From an uncultured Alphaproteobacteria bacterium (lineage in GTDB: Bacteria; Pseudomonadota; Alphaproteobacteria; Micavibrionales; CSBR16-224), in NCBI GenBank assembly GCA_937941575.1, contig CALDHH010000065.1:1-46974 (forward strand): a stretch of 46,974 nucleotides of DNA, given 5' to 3'. A model generated the notes under the pieces. The model was not told where the DNA came from and did not search any database. It worked only from the letters and a program-made list of their open reading frames with translations. The position numbers and the translations under genes are program-made. Shown piece after piece: positions 4,017 through 15,047 of the stretch (the stretch's first letter is position 1; every line of letters starts with the position of its first letter).

Positions 4017-5288
4017 TTAAGCCTGAGGCATAAATAAATCCATGTCTATAAAGTAAAAAGCTACACTACTACATAACATTACTAAAAAGAAGAATAAGCA
4101 ATAGCTGAATAATTTTACGCCACCGACCTTAAATATAATTCCTAGTTTAATTATCATGTTGACAGTCATGGCAATTAGGATTGATATAGAAGCAGTCGAT
4201 AATAAAATCTCACCTGAACTTGCAAGTTCTGATACCGTAAATGTTACAACTCTTAAACTTACAGCTCCACCTAATAGTGATGTTAGATATACGCCAGTAT
4301 CCCCAAATAATCGAGTTGCTAATGCAATGAAAACCAATCCTATTGATATTAATAAGGCAAAGCTAACTGTTTTTTTCAACGATATTGGATTATTTATCTT
4401 TACGGTAATTTCTTCTGTTTCAGTGCTATCTTTCTTAATTGCTCCTAAACCCATAGTACATAACAGTCCTATTATTGCTGGTATTGCTAAAAACATCACC
4501 AAATTACTTGCAACACTTGGCGCAATTATTATTAAAACTATTACTTGAATTAATAAAGAAGCCACCTCAGCCAAGATAATACCGCTAGTAATATTTATAA
4601 GCTGATTAGGTCGTTCATTATACTTACCGGCTAAATTAAACGTTGTTGCAGTGGCTGATATAAAACCACCGAAAAATCCAGTTGCAAGTAATCCCCATTT
4701 TAACCCCAATTGCTTCAATGCAATATAACTAGAGAATTCAACACCTGCTATAACCACGAAAAGCATCCAAATTCTAGTTGGATGTATTAACTCCCAAGGA
4801 TCAATAAACTCGTTGGGAAGTAAGGGCAGGATTACTATAGCGCTAATTAGAAAAGTTAATACAGCAGTCATCTCTTCTTTTGTAATACCGTTTTGTGCAA
4901 AAGAATGCAGCCGTTTTTTTAACGTTAAAAAACCAAATAATATAACAGCCAATATGATTGCAAGCTGGCTATGTGAGTAAGCTAAAAAACCCAATAAGAA
5001 TGTTAGCATTGCTGCAACAGCCGTGGTTGATCCGACTTGCCATGTAGATTTAGCTTTATTCCAATAGACATGGCTTATAAGTATTAGAATTCCTACAAAT
5101 AAGCTTATGATGATGATTAAGATATCATTTCCAAGAAAAGCAATAATTGCCCCAGTTAAGGCCAAGAGTGGAAAAGTGCGGGCGCCGGATATTGGTTTGC
5201 TATTCTTATTTTTGGCTCTCTCTCTTTCAAATCCAATCAAGAAACCGGCTAATATAGCTGTTAGAAATGGTATCATTTCATTAAACAT
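4017..5288 (-). CDS. MgtC/SapB family membrane protein with DUF4010 domain
   Basis: GFLIGFERE...GARTFPL, GSTT, ILPLLP...PW, GFFGGFISATATT; many TM segments. ATG 5288 preferred over TTG 5300. Confidence 0.85.
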   Translation of the reverse strand: MFNEMIPFLTAILAGFLIGFERERAKNKNSKPISGARTFPLLALTGAIIAFLGNDILIIIISLFVGILILISHVYWNKAKSTWQVGSTTAVAAMLTFLLGFLAYSHSQLAIILAVILFGFLTLKKRLHSFAQNGITKEEMTAVLTFLISAIVILPLLPNEFIDPWELIHPTRIWMLFVVIAGVEFSSYIALKQLGLKWGLLATGFFGGFISATATTFNLAGKYNERPNQLINITSGIILAEVASLLIQVIVLIIIAPSVASNLVMFLAIPAIIGLLCTMGLGAIKKDSTETEEITVKINNPISLKKTVSFALLISIGLVFIALATRLFGDTGVYLTSLLGGAVSLRVVTFTVSELASSGEILLSTASISILIAMTVNMIIKLGIIFKVGGVKLFSYCLFFFLVMLCSSVAFYFIDMDLFMPQA

Positions 5289-5311
5289 TGTAAATCTCAA
5301 TCTCTTTAATT

Positions 5312-5389
5312 TTATCTAGATAACTAATCTCATCCCCTTATAGATAATACAATATAAAAGAACTTCAATAGATAACTTTATCTAGATAA
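5312..5389. promoter_or_regulatory. Two copies of the perfect palindrome TTATCTAGATAA (candidate operator)
   Basis: Copies at 5312-5323 and 5378-5389, with TAGATAA half-sites at 5341-5347 and 5369-5375, directly upstream of the MgtC/DUF4010 gene. Confidence 0.5.
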
Positions 5390-5426: not shown

Positions 5427-5455
5427 TTGACTTAATGAATATTCTCGGATAGTTT
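5427..5455 (+). promoter_or_regulatory. Sigma-70-type promoter for the leader transcript
   Basis: TTGACT (5427-5432), 17 nt spacer, TAGTTT (5450-5455). The predicted TSS falls at or near the ATG at 5461, implying a leaderless transcript. Confidence 0.55.
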
Positions 5456-5460
5456 TAATT

Positions 5461-5517
5461 ATGAATAAATTAGATCAAAATACAATCAAAACTACATGGC
5501 AGTGGCTTCTTAAATAG
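5461..5517 (+). CDS. Trp-containing leader peptide MNKLDQNTIKTTWQWLLK (trpL-like)
   Basis: 18-codon ORF with TGG-CAG-TGG near the 3' end, followed by alternative RNA stems. Absent from the supplied ORF track. Confidence 0.7.
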   Translation: MNKLDQNTIKTTWQWLLK

Positions 5518-5562
5518 ATTAGCGACAGCAATAACTTTACCAAAATATTATTAATTATACAG

Positions 5563-5595
5563 AATGTCGCAGAGAAGATTTGTGGCATTTTTTTT
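5563..5595 (+). terminator. Intrinsic terminator of a putative attenuator
   Basis: Stem AATGTCGCAGA (5563-5573) / TTTGTGGCATT (5579-5589) with G-U pairs, then a T run to 5595. GCGACA (5522-5527) is the exact reverse complement of TGTCGC (5565-5570) and could form the antiterminator. Confidence 0.72.
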
Positions 5596-5649
5596 ATTCT
5601 ATAATTCAAATTTCTTCTTTTATGCATTCTAACTTAAGAGGAATAGAAA

Positions 5650-6942
5650 ATGAACAAGGCTAAAATTAAAAAAACATATAAGCCGATGGGGCTAAAAATA
5701 GGAAGTGAAATTGAGCATCTGATAATAAATGATGATAATTCACCGCTTGATATAACAATTTGTGATAAATTTTCAGACATTTTAAATGCAAAGAAAATGG
5801 ATCATAGTAGAGAGATATATTCTGGAGTTTTTGAAACTAAAACAAAAGCTTATCGTCCAAGTCATCTAATGCAGATGTTTAATGAGAGAGCAAAACATTC
5901 CAAGTTAATCTATGAAACAGCAGAAGAATTAGGAGCGAAGACTTCAGAACTGCCTTTTGATCCTGATTTAACTCTTGATGAAGCAATGGAGTATAATATT
6001 AAACATCCAAGAGCTGATAACCTACTCTCTCATTTAAAATCCATTGGTGAAGACAAGATTATTGAGCATTGTGTCATGACTACAGGAATTCATGTCTCAA
6101 TCGGTTTTGATGATTTAGATGAAGCATTAGATATTATTAAGATATCTTCGATGTTAACTCCATTATTAACATTATTGATGGAGAATAACATTGGGCGTGA
6201 TCAAGGGGTAGTATTTAAAGGAAACCCAACCGCAAATAAGCGGCATTCACAAAAAGAGCGCACGGATATACAAGAATATTTCTATAGTTCAAATACAGGA
6301 GAGGAGCTTATTAATAACCATATCCAGCATATATTAAATACACCCGCAATGATGTATATGGATGGTAATGAAGAGGTACAAATATCTAAAAACCCCCATA
6401 ATACTTCTTTAAAAAAATTATCCAAAACCCAAGAAATAACCGAAGATAATTTCTTTCTAGTTGAGAAAATGCAATATAATGATGTTAAAATAGCTTCTTT
6501 AAAATGCAAAGATGATAATGTTATTGGGCATCGTGTTGAATTAAGAATGTCTGATAATGGTGTCCATCAACATGATAGTATGGTTTTAATTGCTTTAATG
6601 ATTGCAAGCAAAAAAGGCCGCATAATGATTAGAGAAGTTCTAAAAGATTTTGGCTATGAAAGCGGTAATCCAGAACTATATAATACCGTCTGTGCAGATC
6701 TAAGCAAAGCAATATCACATGATGGCAAGCATCTTTCTCAGATAATGAGTAATGGGGAAACATTCTCTTCTATGGCCAAAGAATTTGGTAATGGGTTACA
6801 AAGCTTTATTTCAGAAGACTACCCTGAATATTTAGAAAAAGCCCTACCGATACTTAAAATATGCAATACAGGTAGAAGTCAGGCATCTGACAATATTAGA
6901 AAGAAACCATTATCTCAATCTAGAAAGACTTCGCTAATGTAA
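5650..6942 (+). CDS. Divergent glutamate-cysteine ligase family 2 (GCS2)-like carboxylate-amine ligase
   Basis: KIGSEIEH (GxExE), EIYSGVFE, TTGIHVSIG, YNDVK and RVELRMSD (ExRxxD) in canonical order; GAGG SD upstream. Confidence 0.65.
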   Translation: MNKAKIKKTYKPMGLKIGSEIEHLIINDDNSPLDITICDKFSDILNAKKMDHSREIYSGVFETKTKAYRPSHLMQMFNERAKHSKLIYETAEELGAKTSELPFDPDLTLDEAMEYNIKHPRADNLLSHLKSIGEDKIIEHCVMTTGIHVSIGFDDLDEALDIIKISSMLTPLLTLLMENNIGRDQGVVFKGNPTANKRHSQKERTDIQEYFYSSNTGEELINNHIQHILNTPAMMYMDGNEEVQISKNPHNTSLKKLSKTQEITEDNFFLVEKMQYNDVKIASLKCKDDNVIGHRVELRMSDNGVHQHDSMVLIALMIASKKGRIMIREVLKDFGYESGNPELYNTVCADLSKAISHDGKHLSQIMSNGETFSSMAKEFGNGLQSFISEDYPEYLEKALPILKICNTGRSQASDNIRKKPLSQSRKTSLM

Positions 6943-7075
6943 AACTTTAATAAGCTTATAACGTCATCTCTCATATAATTAAATTAATATATTATTTAAT
7001 CTTTCCAAAATTTTAATAATTAAGAAAGTATCATAGCTTTAAGGTGAGATATAATGGATTAAAAGGTATAAAAGC

Positions 7076-7936
7076 ATGAAGATAATACATATAACAGATA
7101 TGCATTTTGGTCCATATCAATGGTTTGGTAATAATGATCTATTATTAGATAGGTTAAATTCATTTGATGCGGACCTCATTTTTAATACAGGGGATATGAC
7201 GACAGATTCATTAGAAGATGAATATCAGCAAGCTGGAGAATTCTTAAACAAACTTGAATGCAAAAATATTGTCTCCATTATGGGTAATCATGATAAATTT
7301 AGTAAACGTTCTGGTGATTTTTTTAGGAAATATATCTATGATGGAAAATTTATTGAGCCTAAAAATATTTCAAAACTGGAAAAACCCAATATTTATATAG
7401 ATAAGAATACTTCAACATTAGATAACTATCTTTATGATCTTAATTTTGTTAGAGAATTTGATATTAAGGGTGAGAAGATATTAGTATTGGGATTAGACAC
7501 ATGTGTTCTAAACTGTCATTATGGACTTATAGAAGAAGAAATTCTACATTCTCTGGCAGATATAATTAAATCTACTCAACATGACCGCATTTTCACACTG
7601 ACCCATCATTCCATATTATCTGGGGATGAGAATGCCTTGAGTAATTCAAAGCGAGTAACAGATTTTATATTAGAGCATAATATTGAAGCCAATTTCTGTG
7701 GCCATACTCATGAATTAGATATGGTAGAAGTGAGAGATATAATGCTTAATAAGACTTATCGGCAATTCATGTCTGGAACAATGTCTAGTCGAACAACTTC
7801 AACTAGCGCAACTTCGACAGAAGCAAATATGTATTGCACATATGAGAATCTTGGGACAAGCGATGAAAAGATAACGATTATCCGCATGCACCCAGATGGC
7901 GATGATATTAGATTTGAAGAAACCGTCATTACTTAA
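7076..7936 (+). CDS. Calcineurin-like metallophosphoesterase (Icc/CpdA-like)
   Basis: HITDMHFG, TGDMT, GNHD, THH and CGHTH motifs. Confidence 0.9.
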   Translation: MKIIHITDMHFGPYQWFGNNDLLLDRLNSFDADLIFNTGDMTTDSLEDEYQQAGEFLNKLECKNIVSIMGNHDKFSKRSGDFFRKYIYDGKFIEPKNISKLEKPNIYIDKNTSTLDNYLYDLNFVREFDIKGEKILVLGLDTCVLNCHYGLIEEEILHSLADIIKSTQHDRIFTLTHHSILSGDENALSNSKRVTDFILEHNIEANFCGHTHELDMVEVRDIMLNKTYRQFMSGTMSSRTTSTSATSTEANMYCTYENLGTSDEKITIIRMHPDGDDIRFEETVIT

Positions 7937-8115
7937 GGTTTTTGAAGATAATAATTAGGTAGAGGCAAGAGCTCAATAGCCAGTTTTAAGAGCCTCTCTT
8001 TACCATTATTACGTAGTTTTTCTTTCATAATCACTGAATTAGCTATATGTAACTTTCTTAGTAGCATTAGCGAATAAAACAATAGATGATAAAGATTAAA
8101 CCTAAGGTAGAGAAG

Positions 8116-9123
8116 ATGACCGATAAAACCGTAATTTTTAAGAAAAAAATATTAGCTTTTTTCGTAGTATTCATCTTCTCATCCATGATGGGAGCATTCG
8201 CAGGAGATATTCCAGATAGATGGAAAAGTGAATGGTCAGCTACAGATTTCTCAAAATCTAGTATAGAATTTTCAGAGGTAATGTCAGGTGGGCCACCAAA
8301 AGATGGAATTCCTGCAATTGATGATCCGAAATTTAAACCTGTCTCCGACATTAATGATATTGGCGATAAAGAGCCTGTTATTTCCATTGAGATAGATGGG
8401 AAGGCAAAAGCTTATCCTTTGCGGATATTAATGTGGCATGAAATTGCCAATGATGAATTAAGCGGAGTCCCAATAACAGTAACATATTGCCCATTATGCA
8501 ATTCCAGTGTCATTTTTGACCGTCGCATAAATAATAAAATTTTAGATTTCGGGGTATCAGGAAAGCTACGTCATTCAGATATGATCATGTATGATCGCCA
8601 AACTGAAAGCTGGTGGCAACAATTTCTGGGTGAAGGGGTTGTTGGTGAGATGACAGGTGTAAAATTAAAACGCCTTCCATCCCGTATTATACCCTTTGCT
8701 AAATTCAAAAAATCTCACCCGCAAGGGCAAGTTCTAATAGCTAATAATAAATCATCCCGCAATTACGGATCTAACCCTTATTTTAAATATGATAGTGCAG
8801 ATAAACCATTCTTGCTTCAGAAAGAATATAATGGCCCTATTCCATCACTTGCCTATGTTATTGCAATTGACAAAAAAGCTTGGCCTTTGGAAGATATACG
8901 TAAGCAGAAACGCATTGTGGATGGTGATATAATTATTGAATGGCAGACGGGGATGAATTCAGCACTTGACCAGCAACAGATTGATAAAGGACAAGATATT
9001 GGCTATGTAACAGTGCAAAGAAAACAGCCCGATGGATCTCTTATTAATATTGCTTATGATATGAGCTTTGCTTTTGCTTTCTCTATCTTTCAACCAGATG
9101 GCAAGATTATAATTCATGAATAA
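8116..9123 (+). CDS. DUF3179 domain-containing exported protein
   Basis: Signal peptide ending AFA; SGGPPKDGIPAIDDP, AYPLRILMWHEIAND, TYCPLCNS, FGVSGKL, MYDRQTESWWQQ. An alternative start exists at 8086. Confidence 0.85.
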   Translation: MTDKTVIFKKKILAFFVVFIFSSMMGAFAGDIPDRWKSEWSATDFSKSSIEFSEVMSGGPPKDGIPAIDDPKFKPVSDINDIGDKEPVISIEIDGKAKAYPLRILMWHEIANDELSGVPITVTYCPLCNSSVIFDRRINNKILDFGVSGKLRHSDMIMYDRQTESWWQQFLGEGVVGEMTGVKLKRLPSRIIPFAKFKKSHPQGQVLIANNKSSRNYGSNPYFKYDSADKPFLLQKEYNGPIPSLAYVIAIDKKAWPLEDIRKQKRIVDGDIIIEWQTGMNSALDQQQIDKGQDIGYVTVQRKQPDGSLINIAYDMSFAFAFSIFQPDGKIIIHE

Positions 9124-9135
9124 AGATTAGATAAT

Positions 9136-10671
9136 CTATATTATCTCTTTATTATCCATTCTTTTTAGAAATCTTTGACTATTATCTTTGATTGCCTCTA
9201 TCTTCTCTGCATCCATTCTTTCCAAGGATTTATATATTAAGGCAAGTCTATGATTTCCTCTTAACTTACCCTCATTTCTAATTAAAAAATCCCAATATAG
9301 GTAATTAAATGGACAAGCTTCTTGACCATTTTTCTTGGTAACTTTATAGCGGCATGACTTACAGTAATCTGACATTTTATTAATATATGCACCACTTGCT
9401 GCATATGGTTTAGAGCCTAAAAAACCACCATCGGCAAATAATATCATGCCTGTTACATTTGGTAATTCTACCCATTGATATGCATCGGCATAGACAATCA
9501 TAAACCATTCATTAACCTCATCTGGTGAGAGTCCTGATATCAGAGCAAAATTGCCCAAGACCATTAATCTTTGAATATGATGAGCATAAGAGTTTTCTTT
9601 TGTTTCTTTGACGCATTGTTTTAAACAATTCATCTGAGTTGCCCCACCCCAATATAAATCAGGTAAAGCCCTTGTTGCTTCTAAAAAATTATTCTGTTCA
9701 TATTCAGGCATTTTTAGCCAATAAATACCACGTATATATTCCCGCCATCCAATGATCTGCCTTATAAAACCTTCAACTGCATTTAATGGAGCTTTGCCAT
9801 TATTATAAGATTTCTCTGCCAATTTTATACATTCGAGCGGCTCTAATAATCCACAATTTATATAAAAACTAATATGGCTATGATACATCCAAGGCTCATT
9901 TTGAATCATAGCATCTTGGTAATCGCCAAATATCTCTAATCTTTCTGTTACAAATTTATTTAATGCATCTAATGCTTGTTCTCTAGTAACCGCAAAATAA
10001 AATGGAGCTAAATCACCAAAATGATTATCAAATCTTTTAGCAACCAATTCCATGACTTCGTTACTTATATCATCTGGTTCTGAAATATAAGTATCTGGGA
10101 TTACTAGGCCTTCTTTTGGTGGTTTACGGTTATTGCTATCATAATTCCATTTACCGCCCTCTGGCTTATCGCCATCCATTAGAATGTTATATTTCCTACG
10201 CATTTCACGGTAGAAATATTCCATCCGCAATTGCTTACGTCCATCCGTCCAATCTTTAAAATCTGCTTTTGTGCAAAGGAATCTCTCATCAAGCCTAATT
10301 TCTACTGGAATATTAAACCCATCTTGCCATGTTTCAATATCTGCCAAAACTCTATATTCAGATGGTTCAGTTACTATTATTTTATCTATATTCTTCAATT
10401 CAATAATTCTTTTAATCTCAGCTTTAAAAGATCCTTGATTATCTTCTGCATCTAACTTGCGGTAGACTACATTATACTTCTTTGCTTTTAACTCTTCATA
10501 AAAATGACGCATTGCAGAGAATATAAAAGCAATCTTCTTCTTATGATGCCTAACATATGTAGCCTCTTCCCAAACTTCACACATAAAAATTAAATCATTA
10601 TCTATATCCAAATCCGATAGGCTTGATATATTATGGCTTAGCTGGTCGCCAAGAATTAATCTTAAAATCAT
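9136..10671 (-). CDS. Cryptochrome/photolyase of the FeS-BCP class (bacterial (6-4) photolyase, Agrobacterium PhrB / Rhodobacter CryB-like)
   Basis: LILGDQL, HHKKKI, MEYFYREMRR, GFIRQIIGWREY, YAHHIQRLM, KPYAASGAYINKMSDYC. Fe-S cysteines in MNCL, CKSC and ACPF. Confidence 0.92.
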   Translation of the reverse strand: MILRLILGDQLSHNISSLSDLDIDNDLIFMCEVWEEATYVRHHKKKIAFIFSAMRHFYEELKAKKYNVVYRKLDAEDNQGSFKAEIKRIIELKNIDKIIVTEPSEYRVLADIETWQDGFNIPVEIRLDERFLCTKADFKDWTDGRKQLRMEYFYREMRRKYNILMDGDKPEGGKWNYDSNNRKPPKEGLVIPDTYISEPDDISNEVMELVAKRFDNHFGDLAPFYFAVTREQALDALNKFVTERLEIFGDYQDAMIQNEPWMYHSHISFYINCGLLEPLECIKLAEKSYNNGKAPLNAVEGFIRQIIGWREYIRGIYWLKMPEYEQNNFLEATRALPDLYWGGATQMNCLKQCVKETKENSYAHHIQRLMVLGNFALISGLSPDEVNEWFMIVYADAYQWVELPNVTGMILFADGGFLGSKPYAASGAYINKMSDYCKSCRYKVTKKNGQEACPFNYLYWDFLIRNEGKLRGNHRLALIYKSLERMDAEKIEAIKDNSQRFLKRMDNKEII

Positions 10672-12303: not shown

Positions 12304-12729
12304 ATGGTTTATAGAATTGTATACATATCGAAAGCTACCCCAAGCCTTGATGATAAAGAATTAGATAAGATTTTAGCATCCTCCCGGAAAAACAACCCTA
12401 AACTAGATGTAACTGGATTAATGCTATTTTTTGAAGGTAGTTTCTTTCAAGTATTAGAAGGAGAGAAGTCTCAAGTTGAAAGCCTATATAGATATATAGA
12501 GTTAGATTCACGCCATATTACAGTTAAAAGATTACAAGAAGGCGAAGTTAGTGGGCGTTTATTCGGAGATTGGAGTATGGCTTACACCCCTATCTCTAAA
12601 CAAGATAAGCAAAAACTTATTGGTGATGGTGATTTTTTTAGTAAGTTCTCACCATCTAATAGTTTAGATGTAGACACCAAATCATTAACAACATTTATTG
12701 CGAAAATGGTTGAGAAAATGATACGCTAA
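12304..12729 (+). CDS. Stand-alone BLUF domain blue-light sensor
   Basis: IVYIS (Tyr), SRKNN, VTGLML, FFQVLEG (Gln), DSRH, RLFGDWSM (Trp/Met). Confidence 0.93.
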   Translation: MVYRIVYISKATPSLDDKELDKILASSRKNNPKLDVTGLMLFFEGSFFQVLEGEKSQVESLYRYIELDSRHITVKRLQEGEVSGRLFGDWSMAYTPISKQDKQKLIGDGDFFSKFSPSNSLDVDTKSLTTFIAKMVEKMIR

Positions 12730-13556: not shown

Positions 13557-14942
13557 TCATATCTCTTTCTTAGTTTTTCTATAAAATGTTGATTTGGCCA
13601 TGCCTAATGATAATGCAGTTTGGGTTATATTATTATTGTGATTTAATAGGCTCAGCTTAATAACCTCTTCCTCTATCTGTTCCAATGTTTTTTGGTAGCC
13701 ATTTTCATTAAGAATAGAGATGTAATTCTTATTTTTCTCGACATCAATATTACTGATATTAACATTTGGTAACTCATAGAAGTCCTGAATATCTAAGATA
13801 TCATTATCAGATAGTACGATTGCTCTATGGATTGTATTTTCAATTTCACGGACATTACCTCCCCATTCCCATGTTTTCAGCATGTTAATGGCCTCATCTG
13901 AGATATCTTTTAGCTCTTGCCCTTCAATTACAGTAAATCTTTCAATGAAATGATAAATCAGCTCTGCTATATCTTGTCTTCTATCTCTAATTGGTGGGAT
14001 GTTAATTGGTAATACATTAAGTCTGAAATATAGATCATCCCTAAATCTACCTTCCATCACCTCGGTATCTAAATTTTTATTAGTAGCAGATATTATTCTT
14101 ATATTAACAGGAATTGAACTTTGACCACCAACTGATGTTATCTCTTTTTGCTGTAACACTCTTAATAACTTTACTTGAGTATCTAATGGTAACTCCCCCA
14201 CTTCATCAAGAAATATTGTGCCTCCTTCTGCTTCCCTGAATTTACCAATTGATTTGGCTATCGCACCAGTAAATGACCCTTTTTCATGGCCAAATAATAT
14301 ACTTTCCACTAAATTCTCTGGAATTGCGCCACAATTGACTGCAATAAATGGCTTACCAATTCGGTTACTTTCGCCGTGGATGGATTTTGCAAAAACCTCC
14401 TTACCAACACCGGTTTCTCCAGTTAGCAATACAGGTATATCCGCAGATGCAGCTTTCCTACCAACCCCAATTACCTTAGATAAGCCTCCTTCATGGCCTA
14501 TCATTTGTTTAAAGCTATATACTCCATCTTCCTGCTTTTTTAATCTATTAACTTCTTTTTCAAGTACACTTATTTTAAGAGCATTTTTGATTGAAACTTG
14601 TAGACGACCAGGTTCTGGTGGTTTATTTAAAAAATCACTAGCCCCCAATTGCATTGCTTGGACAACTACATTAATATCGGAACTACCCGTCAACATAATA
14701 ACTGGTAAATCAGGATATTGCTGTGACATGATCCCCAATACTTCCATACCGTCCATATCAGGCATATATATATCCAATATCACCAAACGAATTTCTTTAT
14801 TTTGATCTTGTTTTACAATATCTAAGCCAGTTTTTCCACCATCGGCTTCTACAATCTGATAACCAAGTTTATTCTCTAATAAACCCCTTATCATCTTTCT
14901 TTGCATTTTATCATCATCAATTAATAGAATTTTGATACTCAT
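13557..14942 (-). CDS. Sigma-54-dependent response regulator (REC-AAA+-HTH, NtrC family)
   Basis: REC (LLIDDD, ILDIYMPDMDG, FLNKP); GETGVGKE, NCGAIP, GSFTGA, FLDEVGE, FRDDLYFRLNV, WGGNVRE; Fis-type HTH. Start moved to ATG 14942, which follows GGAGG. Confidence 0.95.
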   Translation of the reverse strand: MSIKILLIDDDKMQRKMIRGLLENKLGYQIVEADGGKTGLDIVKQDQNKEIRLVILDIYMPDMDGMEVLGIMSQQYPDLPVIMLTGSSDINVVVQAMQLGASDFLNKPPEPGRLQVSIKNALKISVLEKEVNRLKKQEDGVYSFKQMIGHEGGLSKVIGVGRKAASADIPVLLTGETGVGKEVFAKSIHGESNRIGKPFIAVNCGAIPENLVESILFGHEKGSFTGAIAKSIGKFREAEGGTIFLDEVGELPLDTQVKLLRVLQQKEITSVGGQSSIPVNIRIISATNKNLDTEVMEGRFRDDLYFRLNVLPINIPPIRDRRQDIAELIYHFIERFTVIEGQELKDISDEAINMLKTWEWGGNVREIENTIHRAIVLSDNDILDIQDFYELPNVNISNIDVEKNKNYISILNENGYQKTLEQIEEEVIKLSLLNHNNNITQTALSLGMAKSTFYRKTKKEI

Positions 14943-15004
14943 ACATCCTCCAAACCTCGTGCATAAAGAATAGAAGACAAAGATTAACATTCCTAAAACA
15001 AACC

Positions 15005-15047
15005 GTATCAAAATGAGAAATCGACCATAATAATCTCATTTCGATAC
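15005..15047. promoter_or_regulatory. Inverted repeat, candidate enhancer (UAS) for the adjacent enhancer-binding protein
   Basis: GTATCAAAATGAGA (15005-15018), 15 nt, TCTCATTTCGATAC (15034-15047); 13 of 14 positions match. Centred about 100 nt upstream of the predicted sigma-54 TSS. Confidence 0.65.

Follow-up and report, generated by a model that had tools for sequence, protein, structure and literature searches.

A candidate leaderless trpL-type attenuator before a Trp-free ligase gene in two alphaproteobacteria that look like tryptophan auxotrophs

We analysed a stretch of 46,974 nucleotides (nt) from an uncultured alphaproteobacterium (GenBank contig CALDHH010000065.1), called the window below. 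In it, a short leader precedes a gene for a carboxylate-amine ligase that contains no tryptophan (Trp). Judging from the sequence, this leader is likely to be a functional, leaderless ribosomal attenuator of the trpL type, reused as a sensor of Trp starvation in Trp auxotrophs. The transcription start, the termination or read-through and the direction of the response to Trp are what we infer from the DNA. The single features of such a leader are weak in a genome of 32% G+C. The decisive support comes from conservation at a second ortholog locus.

The window is contig C65 of the source genome, here G000. This genome has 1.96 Mb in 196 contigs, is 94% complete and has about 32% G+C. The public runs that contain the stretch are labelled as marine or seawater metagenomes, and no RNA run is listed among them. 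The second ortholog is in genome G020, which is 97% complete and comes from a different family within the order.

The leader upstream of the ligase gene

The leader sits in a gap of 349 nt. On one side is a minus-strand MgtC/DUF4010 gene (4017-5300), and on the other the plus-strand ligase open reading frame (ORF). Table 1 lists the features of the leader. The arrangement TTGACT-N17-TAGTTT-N5-ATG predicts a transcript that is leaderless or nearly so. The small upstream ORF (uORF) has two in-frame TGG codons, at 5497-5499 and 5503-5505, and no purine-rich Shine-Dalgarno sequence is present upstream of its ATG.

Table 1. Features of the leader and the ligase gene in the window (MFE, minimum free energy; GCL, glutamate-cysteine ligase).
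Feature	Position	Strand	Remarks
-35 box TTGACT	5427-5432	+	28 nt upstream of the uORF ATG
Putative -10 box TAGTTT	5450-5455	+	Weak, 3/6 match; 17 nt after the -35 box, 5 nt before the ATG
Leader peptide uORF, 18 codons, MNKLDQNTIKTTWQWLLK	5461-5517	+	W-Q-W; stop TAG at 5515-5517
Region 1, GCAGTGGCT	5499-5507	+	Overlaps the Trp codons; 1:2 pairing in the MFE fold
Region 2, AGCGACAGC	5521-5529	+	Begins 4 nt past the uORF stop; partner is region 1 or region 3
Region 3 core, TGTCGC	5565-5570	+	Part of the terminator 5' arm; perfect Watson-Crick complement of GCGACA (5522-5527)
Intrinsic terminator (3:4)	5561-5595	+	13-pair stem, 5-nt loop; hairpin 5561-5591, T8 5588-5595
Shine-Dalgarno sequence of the ligase gene, AAGAGGAA	5636-5643	+	6 nt before the ATG at 5650
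Carboxylate-amine ligase, 430 amino acids, Trp-free, GCS2 / plant-type GCL fold	5650-6942	+	Profile and structure-model evidence

The RNA has two ways to pair its region 2. With region 1, 7 of 9 positions are paired. With region 3 the match is complete, and region 3 is at the same time the 5' arm of the terminator. A terminator scan found this terminator independently; its hairpin has -13.5 kcal/mol and a z-score of -4.3, and 0/200 shuffles were as good. The MFE fold of the whole leader combines 1:2 and 3:4 (z -2.4, with 3/200 shuffles equally good). An earlier note on this DNA had described the promoter hexamers, the W-Q-W uORF, the pairings and the terminator, and all of them are where it placed them. 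It had called the 1:2 pairing imperfect and the GCGACA/TGTCGC pairing perfect, in agreement with the 7/9 positions and the full complement.

The same architecture at the orthologous locus

The G020 ligase is 46% identical to the window ligase at the protein level. Its locus was returned three times as one identical sequence (L002, L021 and L022), and we count it once. The DNA upstream reads TTGACT-N17-TTAAAT-N7-ATG. The TTGACT hexamer is the same as in the window and stands 30 nt before the uORF ATG, compared with 28 nt in the window. The uORF has 16 codons (MNNTVIQICSFWWWRF, with W-W-W), and its ATG has no Shine-Dalgarno sequence.

The stop codon of the G020 uORF is 3 nt before the segment AGCGGCA; in the window, 4 nt separate the stop from region 2. 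This segment has two possible partners. One is the Trp-codon region, which gives a strong 1:2 hairpin; the other is TGCCGCT, which forms the 5' arm of a hairpin further downstream (z -2.8, 1/200 shuffles as good). The two leaders cannot be aligned except for their ATGAATAA start and the TGG codons, and they have no stem sequence in common. So, the geometry is the same with unalignable stems, and it is the architecture that is kept, not the sequence. The earlier note proposed looking for Trp-codon uORFs upstream of homologs, and one is thus present in the ortholog with DNA.

A comparable uORF is absent from 18 more distant homolog loci (L003-L020), with 22-31% identity where tblastn matched and no match for L013. 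L003 and L012, two of these loci, do have long small ORFs with W codons, apparently by chance. Two metagenome scans and one scan of GTDB representatives for more ortholog DNA gave only the sequence of a 'Micavibrio sp.' metagenome-assembled genome (MAG), which is the G020 sequence (L002). No natural variants of the leader were obtained. Contigs from four DNA runs, at 80% likeness, matched as short pieces only; one piece of 45 bases aligned at 5554-5598 with 9 differences, and its flanks were unlike.

Alternative folds and proposed mechanism

We folded the nascent RNA up to region 3 and masked the stretch that a ribosome would cover, with a mask of +13 nt for a ribosome at the stop codon. The window leader shows three states in these folds. 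With no ribosome, 1:2 forms. When the A site of a ribosome is occupied by either Trp codon, the RNA adopts 2:3 (-6.0 to -7.3 kcal/mol) while region 4 has yet to be made. A ribosome at the stop covers region 2; 2:3 does not form and region 3 is free for the terminator. The G020 leader has the same three states, and its 2:3 pairing reaches -12.5 kcal/mol. The earlier note had proposed a 1:2 / 2:3 / 3:4 attenuation layout, and in silico the folds behave as in classical attenuation.

The mechanism would then be as follows. As in trpL of Alphaproteobacteria, the ATG of the 18-codon leader ORF, or a position beside it, is the probable start of transcription. With ample charged tRNA-Trp, the ribosome would reach the TAG at 5515-5517 and cover region 2. 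The 3:4 pairing would form, and RNA polymerase would terminate at the T tract. When charged tRNA-Trp is scarce, the ribosome would stall at the TGG at 5497 or 5503 and leave region 2 free. It could then pair with the emerging TGTCGC, no terminator would form, and transcription would continue into the ligase gene. Without any translation, 1:2 would form and lead to termination. In a host apparently without Trp synthesis, such a switch would work as a sensor of Trp supply that turns on a starvation-response enzyme. This ligase could itself be made without Trp.

Chance expectation and rival explanations

AT-rich DNA yields small ORFs and weak pairings cheaply. In the source genome we counted 299 small ORFs that start with ATG and encode W-W or W-x-W, and 399 terminator-like sites. 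The two occur within 120 nt of each other 6 times, with 3.7 expected. In shuffled spacers, an antiterminator pairing was similarly placed in 430/2000 cases for G000 (21%) and in 186/2000 for G020. The unusual element is a strong terminator in a 5' untranslated region (UTR) between divergent genes. For a given site of this kind, we calculated that a W-W uORF ending no more than about 100 nt before it would occur about 0.008 times by chance. A scan listed 22 terminator-like sites in 5' positions, and the one in the ligase leader is alone in having such a uORF. In the search for other Trp leaders in G000, six W-W uORFs were inspected, five of them in coding sequence or without a terminator, and systematic scans gave no second convincing case.

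The co-occurrence and shuffling counts weigh against an attenuator, and so do the points that follow. A promoter scan of the window did not call the TTGACT/TAGTTT promoter, because TAGTTT matches at 3/6 positions only. Directly past the T tract of the terminator there is a perfect TATAAT (5600-5605) with no good -35 box, and it is possible that it forms part of a weak independent promoter of the ligase gene. The 2:3 helix of G000 has only 6 base pairs and closes a loop of 37 nt. At equilibrium, the terminator of the full G000 leader beats 2:3 in every state, masking of region 1 included, and 2:3 is favoured only in the folds of the nascent, truncated RNA. A working switch would therefore need to be kinetic, which is the accepted view of known attenuators. 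In G020, UGGUGAUGUUAUGAU stands after the hairpin in place of a canonical U tract, so canonical intrinsic termination is doubtful there. Independent ortholog loci with DNA to compare number two, G000 and G020; orthologs P0002, P0003, P0005 and P0006 were compared as proteins only. At the gathering threshold, no Rfam family matches the leader. Permissive Rfam scans gave Bacteroid-trp in the G020 leader at chance level (20.3 bits, E 7.6) and none in the window. Finally, Trp-free proteins are not rare in G000 (46/550 ORFs of at least 350 amino acids). The lack of Trp in the ligase is therefore supportive and not decisive.

These counts bear on the first rival explanation. The terminator could be real, in a 5' UTR or at the end of a small RNA, and answer another signal (a protein, a small RNA or a ligand), and the W-containing small ORF would then be untranslated. 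A uORF without a Shine-Dalgarno sequence and a weak -10 box fit this idea, together with the cheapness of its parts. However, the same composite arises from different sequence at the G020 ortholog: TTGACT at 28 or 30 nt, an ATG without Shine-Dalgarno sequence, in-frame W codons towards the C-terminal end, and a distance of 3-4 nt from the stop to the switch segment. The absence of Rfam family matches and a controlled protein that is Trp-free across orthologs also speak against it. We consider this explanation unlikely.

A second rival places the function in trans. The transcript, from about 5461 to 5595, would then be mainly a small RNA, a source of the 18-amino-acid peptide, or both, like rnTrpL and peTrpL, and its place next to the ligase gene would be secondary. 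The attenuator RNA and peptide of S. meliloti are reported to act in trans (PMC6614838, PMC7298713). With its strong terminator, the G000 leader would be expected to yield a discrete RNA of about 135 nt. Nevertheless, the element is directly upstream of the same rare gene in both genomes. The two leader peptides share only their M-N start and a Trp cluster, and the RNAs are unlike, which argues against a conserved target in trans. As the principal function this is improbable; it is compatible with attenuation in cis and could be an added role.

The third rival concerns the direction or the route of control. A TnaC-like peptide could sense free Trp and give induction at high Trp, or the control could be Rho-dependent or translational. 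The hairpin of G020 without a canonical U tract would suit this. In the same genome, the pyrimidine tract past the leader hairpin can pair with the Shine-Dalgarno sequence of the ligase gene (L021 2920-2995; -14.3 kcal/mol, z -1.6). We tried the same sequestration in G000 (5596-5665) and rejected it, with a fold no better than shuffles (z 0.1, 107/200). TnaC is defined by a Trp and an Asp at a fixed distance (Trp...Asp) and by a Pro codon ahead of the stop. We see neither feature in our two peptides, whose C-termini read ...WQWLLK and ...WWWRF and lack a Pro at that place. In addition, G000 has a canonical intrinsic terminator, and its 5' arm is the alternative partner of the segment after the uORF stop. 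Of the three rivals, this one seems to us the most improbable. We thus keep the trpL-type attenuator as the preferred reading of the leader.

Trp content of the orthologs and missing trp genes

In five of the six ligase orthologs (406-437 amino acids), Trp is absent, and the sixth has one. P0007, a homolog with 32% identity, is also free of Trp. One alignment column has W in 22/38 members of the family and Y in 6/6 orthologs.

The genes for Trp synthesis were searched at the family level. In G000, Trp_syntA (trpA), IGPS and Chorismate_bind (trpE) were not found. In G020, Trp_syntA (trpA) and Chorismate_bind (trpE) were not found. The same searches were positive in 14/14 control genomes, and Trp_syntA was found in 26/41 genomes searched (G000 and 40 relatives). 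Since these families go undetected in G000 and G020, both carriers appear to be Trp auxotrophs, as far as draft genomes can tell. The window itself contains no trp biosynthesis gene, just as the earlier note had said.

That note had also asked if trpE elsewhere in the genome has its own attenuator or is absent, and the trpE family was not found anywhere in G000. The element would thus operate in a host that looks auxotrophic, and it is unlikely to be left over from a recent rearrangement. We also considered the leader as a relic of a trpE attenuator and rejected it. In three relatives (L024-L026), trpE abuts its upstream gene and has no leader, and no local ancestor was seen. Two further loci, L027 and L028, encode other chorismate-binding enzymes.

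The ligase

Profile searches with the ligase alone give weak matches. Pfam GCS2 (PF04107) scores 16.9 bits (E 0.0042), below its gathering score of 21 bits, and 11/38 aligned homologs match it at E <= 0.01. The NCBIfam carboxylate-amine ligase model matches at E 6.8e-4. The plant-type GCL equivalog TIGR01436 is absent from the NCBIfam matches of the ligase even at E <= 10. A profile of the 38 homologs finds plant GCL structures in the PDB at 3.3e-15.

The AlphaFold2 model has a mean predicted local distance difference test (pLDDT) score of 95.3. In Foldseek, the top match is the plant GCL 2gwc, with a template modelling (TM) score of 0.77-0.79, E 2.5e-13 and 13% identity; YbdK comes next. The Atlas search returned GCS2-like neighbours only. 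As modelled, the protein is a divergent, full-length member of the GCL fold. It resembles the plant/alphaproteobacterial GCL 2gwc and YbdK (1r8g, query-normalised TM 0.59-0.60) over the whole fold, and differs from 2gwc in its low identity and in the lack of a TIGR01436 match. Therefore, the name 'GCS2-like ligase' in the earlier note holds for the superfamily and the fold, and it does not hold for Pfam GCS2 at its cut-off.

Five residues are invariant in the family alignment: E55, E62, R121, R295 and E297. These Glu and Arg residues would fit an active metal- and ATP-dependent ligase. As far as its substrates can be inferred, the protein is most likely an ATP-dependent ligase that forms gamma-glutamyl bonds.

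The family is rare. Only five close homologs (43-51% identity) are found among 5.8 billion clusters. Among 1.84 billion representatives there are 53 matches at E <= 0.001, and three of them are below 1e-30. The gene is present in 2/320 genomes of the order and in 1/401 of a class sample (G000 itself). The closest named homolog carries the source name of the 'Micavibrio sp.' MAG, and this name fits an alphaproteobacterium.

G000 also has a plant-type GCL at C168:33096-33989 (L023 1096-2595, minus strand), in which we count 8 Trp. It reaches 459.9 bits with TIGR01436, for a cut-off of 463.15 bits. Moreover, G000 encodes a glutathione synthetase. With these two enzymes present, the attenuated ligase is not the housekeeping GCL of this genome. 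In G020, no other GCS2 match was found. The idea of a Trp-sparing isozyme of GCL is possible, and we did not adopt it; the ligase is about 21% identical to the C168 GCL over 114 amino acids.

The gene context hints at gamma-glutamyl chemistry. In G020, the 3' end of the ligase gene is overlapped tail-to-tail by a ChaC-like gene of the gamma-glutamylcyclotransferase family (L022 4169-4738, minus strand). At L003, the gene of a homolog with 30% identity runs 4 nt into the convergent gene for glutathione synthetase.

These neighbours fit a wider idea that we offer tentatively and hold to be doubtful. Leader and ligase together may be a portable 'Trp-hunger module' found in marine alphaproteobacteria that are Trp auxotrophs. 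The trpL switch would have been exapted from feedback on synthesis to the sensing of external Trp alone, and the Trp-free gamma-glutamyl ligase would feed a gamma-glutamyl or glutathione-type scavenging or sparing of amino acids.

Surroundings of the leader and the ligase gene

The divergent promoter region contains a 12-bp palindrome, TTATCTAGATAA, in two exact copies at 5312-5323 and 5378-5389, 66 bp apart. Copies of the half-site-like ATAGATAA lie between them. With one mismatch allowed, the window has 3 matches to the palindrome, and 0.66 are expected. The pair looks like the operator of a dimeric regulator. It could add a control of transcription initiation to the leader or to the mgtC-like gene.

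Downstream, the plus strand has no terminator-like site from the ligase stop to the end of the DUF3179 gene (6943-9123). The ligase gene may share a transcript with the genes for Metallophos (7076-7936) and DUF3179 (8086-9123). This neighbourhood is absent from the G020 locus.

Further along the window, a photolyase-related DPRP protein is encoded at 9136-10671 (minus strand) and a BLUF blue-light sensor of 141 amino acids at 12304-12729 (plus strand). Near these genes is a sigma-54 response-regulator activator (13557-15011). The region is a possible light-response neighbourhood. Elsewhere in G000 (C55:10319-10677, minus strand), there is a permuted two-piece transfer-messenger RNA (tmRNA) with the tag ANDNNVAANGGFQESDLRLVA, which fits Alphaproteobacteria.

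Comparison with known systems

In textbooks, ribosomal attenuators serve as feedback devices on amino-acid synthesis; they usually control genes that make the sensed amino acid, although this link does not strictly define them. In our case, the classical device would occur in two bacterial families, in genomes without detected Trp synthesis genes, and control a rare Trp-free enzyme. Searches of open-access full text and bioRxiv turned up no account of a Trp leader ahead of a GCL-like gene. If our reading is true, switches of the trpL type can outlive the trp pathway or move apart from it, and sense supply in dependent bacteria (predatory, symbiotic or cross-feeding). An uncharacterised branch of the GCL superfamily would gain a physiological handle, namely induction by Trp hunger. 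The leader would also be a compact natural part that responds to Trp.

The closest relatives of this leader are the trpL attenuators of Alphaproteobacteria. The trpL transcript is reported to begin at the ATG in three species (S. meliloti, A. tumefaciens, B. japonicum; PMC6614838); the earlier note was thus correct in calling the Sinorhizobium trpL leaderless. The peptides have 14-19 amino acids, with WW or WWW near the C-terminus, according to a second report (PMC7298713). As in these systems, our leader has a short ORF whose Trp codons cluster towards the C-terminal end, a predicted start at the ATG, no Shine-Dalgarno sequence, three alternative stem-loops and a terminator; the tmRNA of the host is permuted. 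In contrast to trpL upstream of trpE(G), the target here is a GCL-fold ligase and not an anthranilate synthase. The host has no trp genes that we could find, and the G000 uORF has W-Q-W instead of consecutive Trp codons.

The leader also shares the 1:2 / 2:3 / 3:4 logic, the Trp codons and a stop positioned to mask region 2 with E. coli trpL (Rfam Trp_leader) and with Bacteroid-trp of the Bacteroidetes. It differs from them in its predicted leaderless start, where they are led by a Shine-Dalgarno sequence, and in its target gene.

Two other systems place amino-acid sensing outside of biosynthesis. In Salmonella, mgtCBR is reported to have a leader-peptide attenuator on non-biosynthetic genes (PMC3641672). 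Chlamydia trachomatis is a Trp auxotroph that is reported to sense Trp through the WWW codons of YtgCR (PMC7755916). Both resemble our case, since codons of a leader or an ORF sense the supply of an amino acid for genes that do not make it. The likeness to Chlamydia extends to a host that cannot make Trp de novo. The YtgCR mechanism uses a long ORF and Rho, unlike a compact switch of the trpL type. For its part, mgtCBR senses another amino acid, whereas here a compact classical trpL-type switch would act on a ligase.

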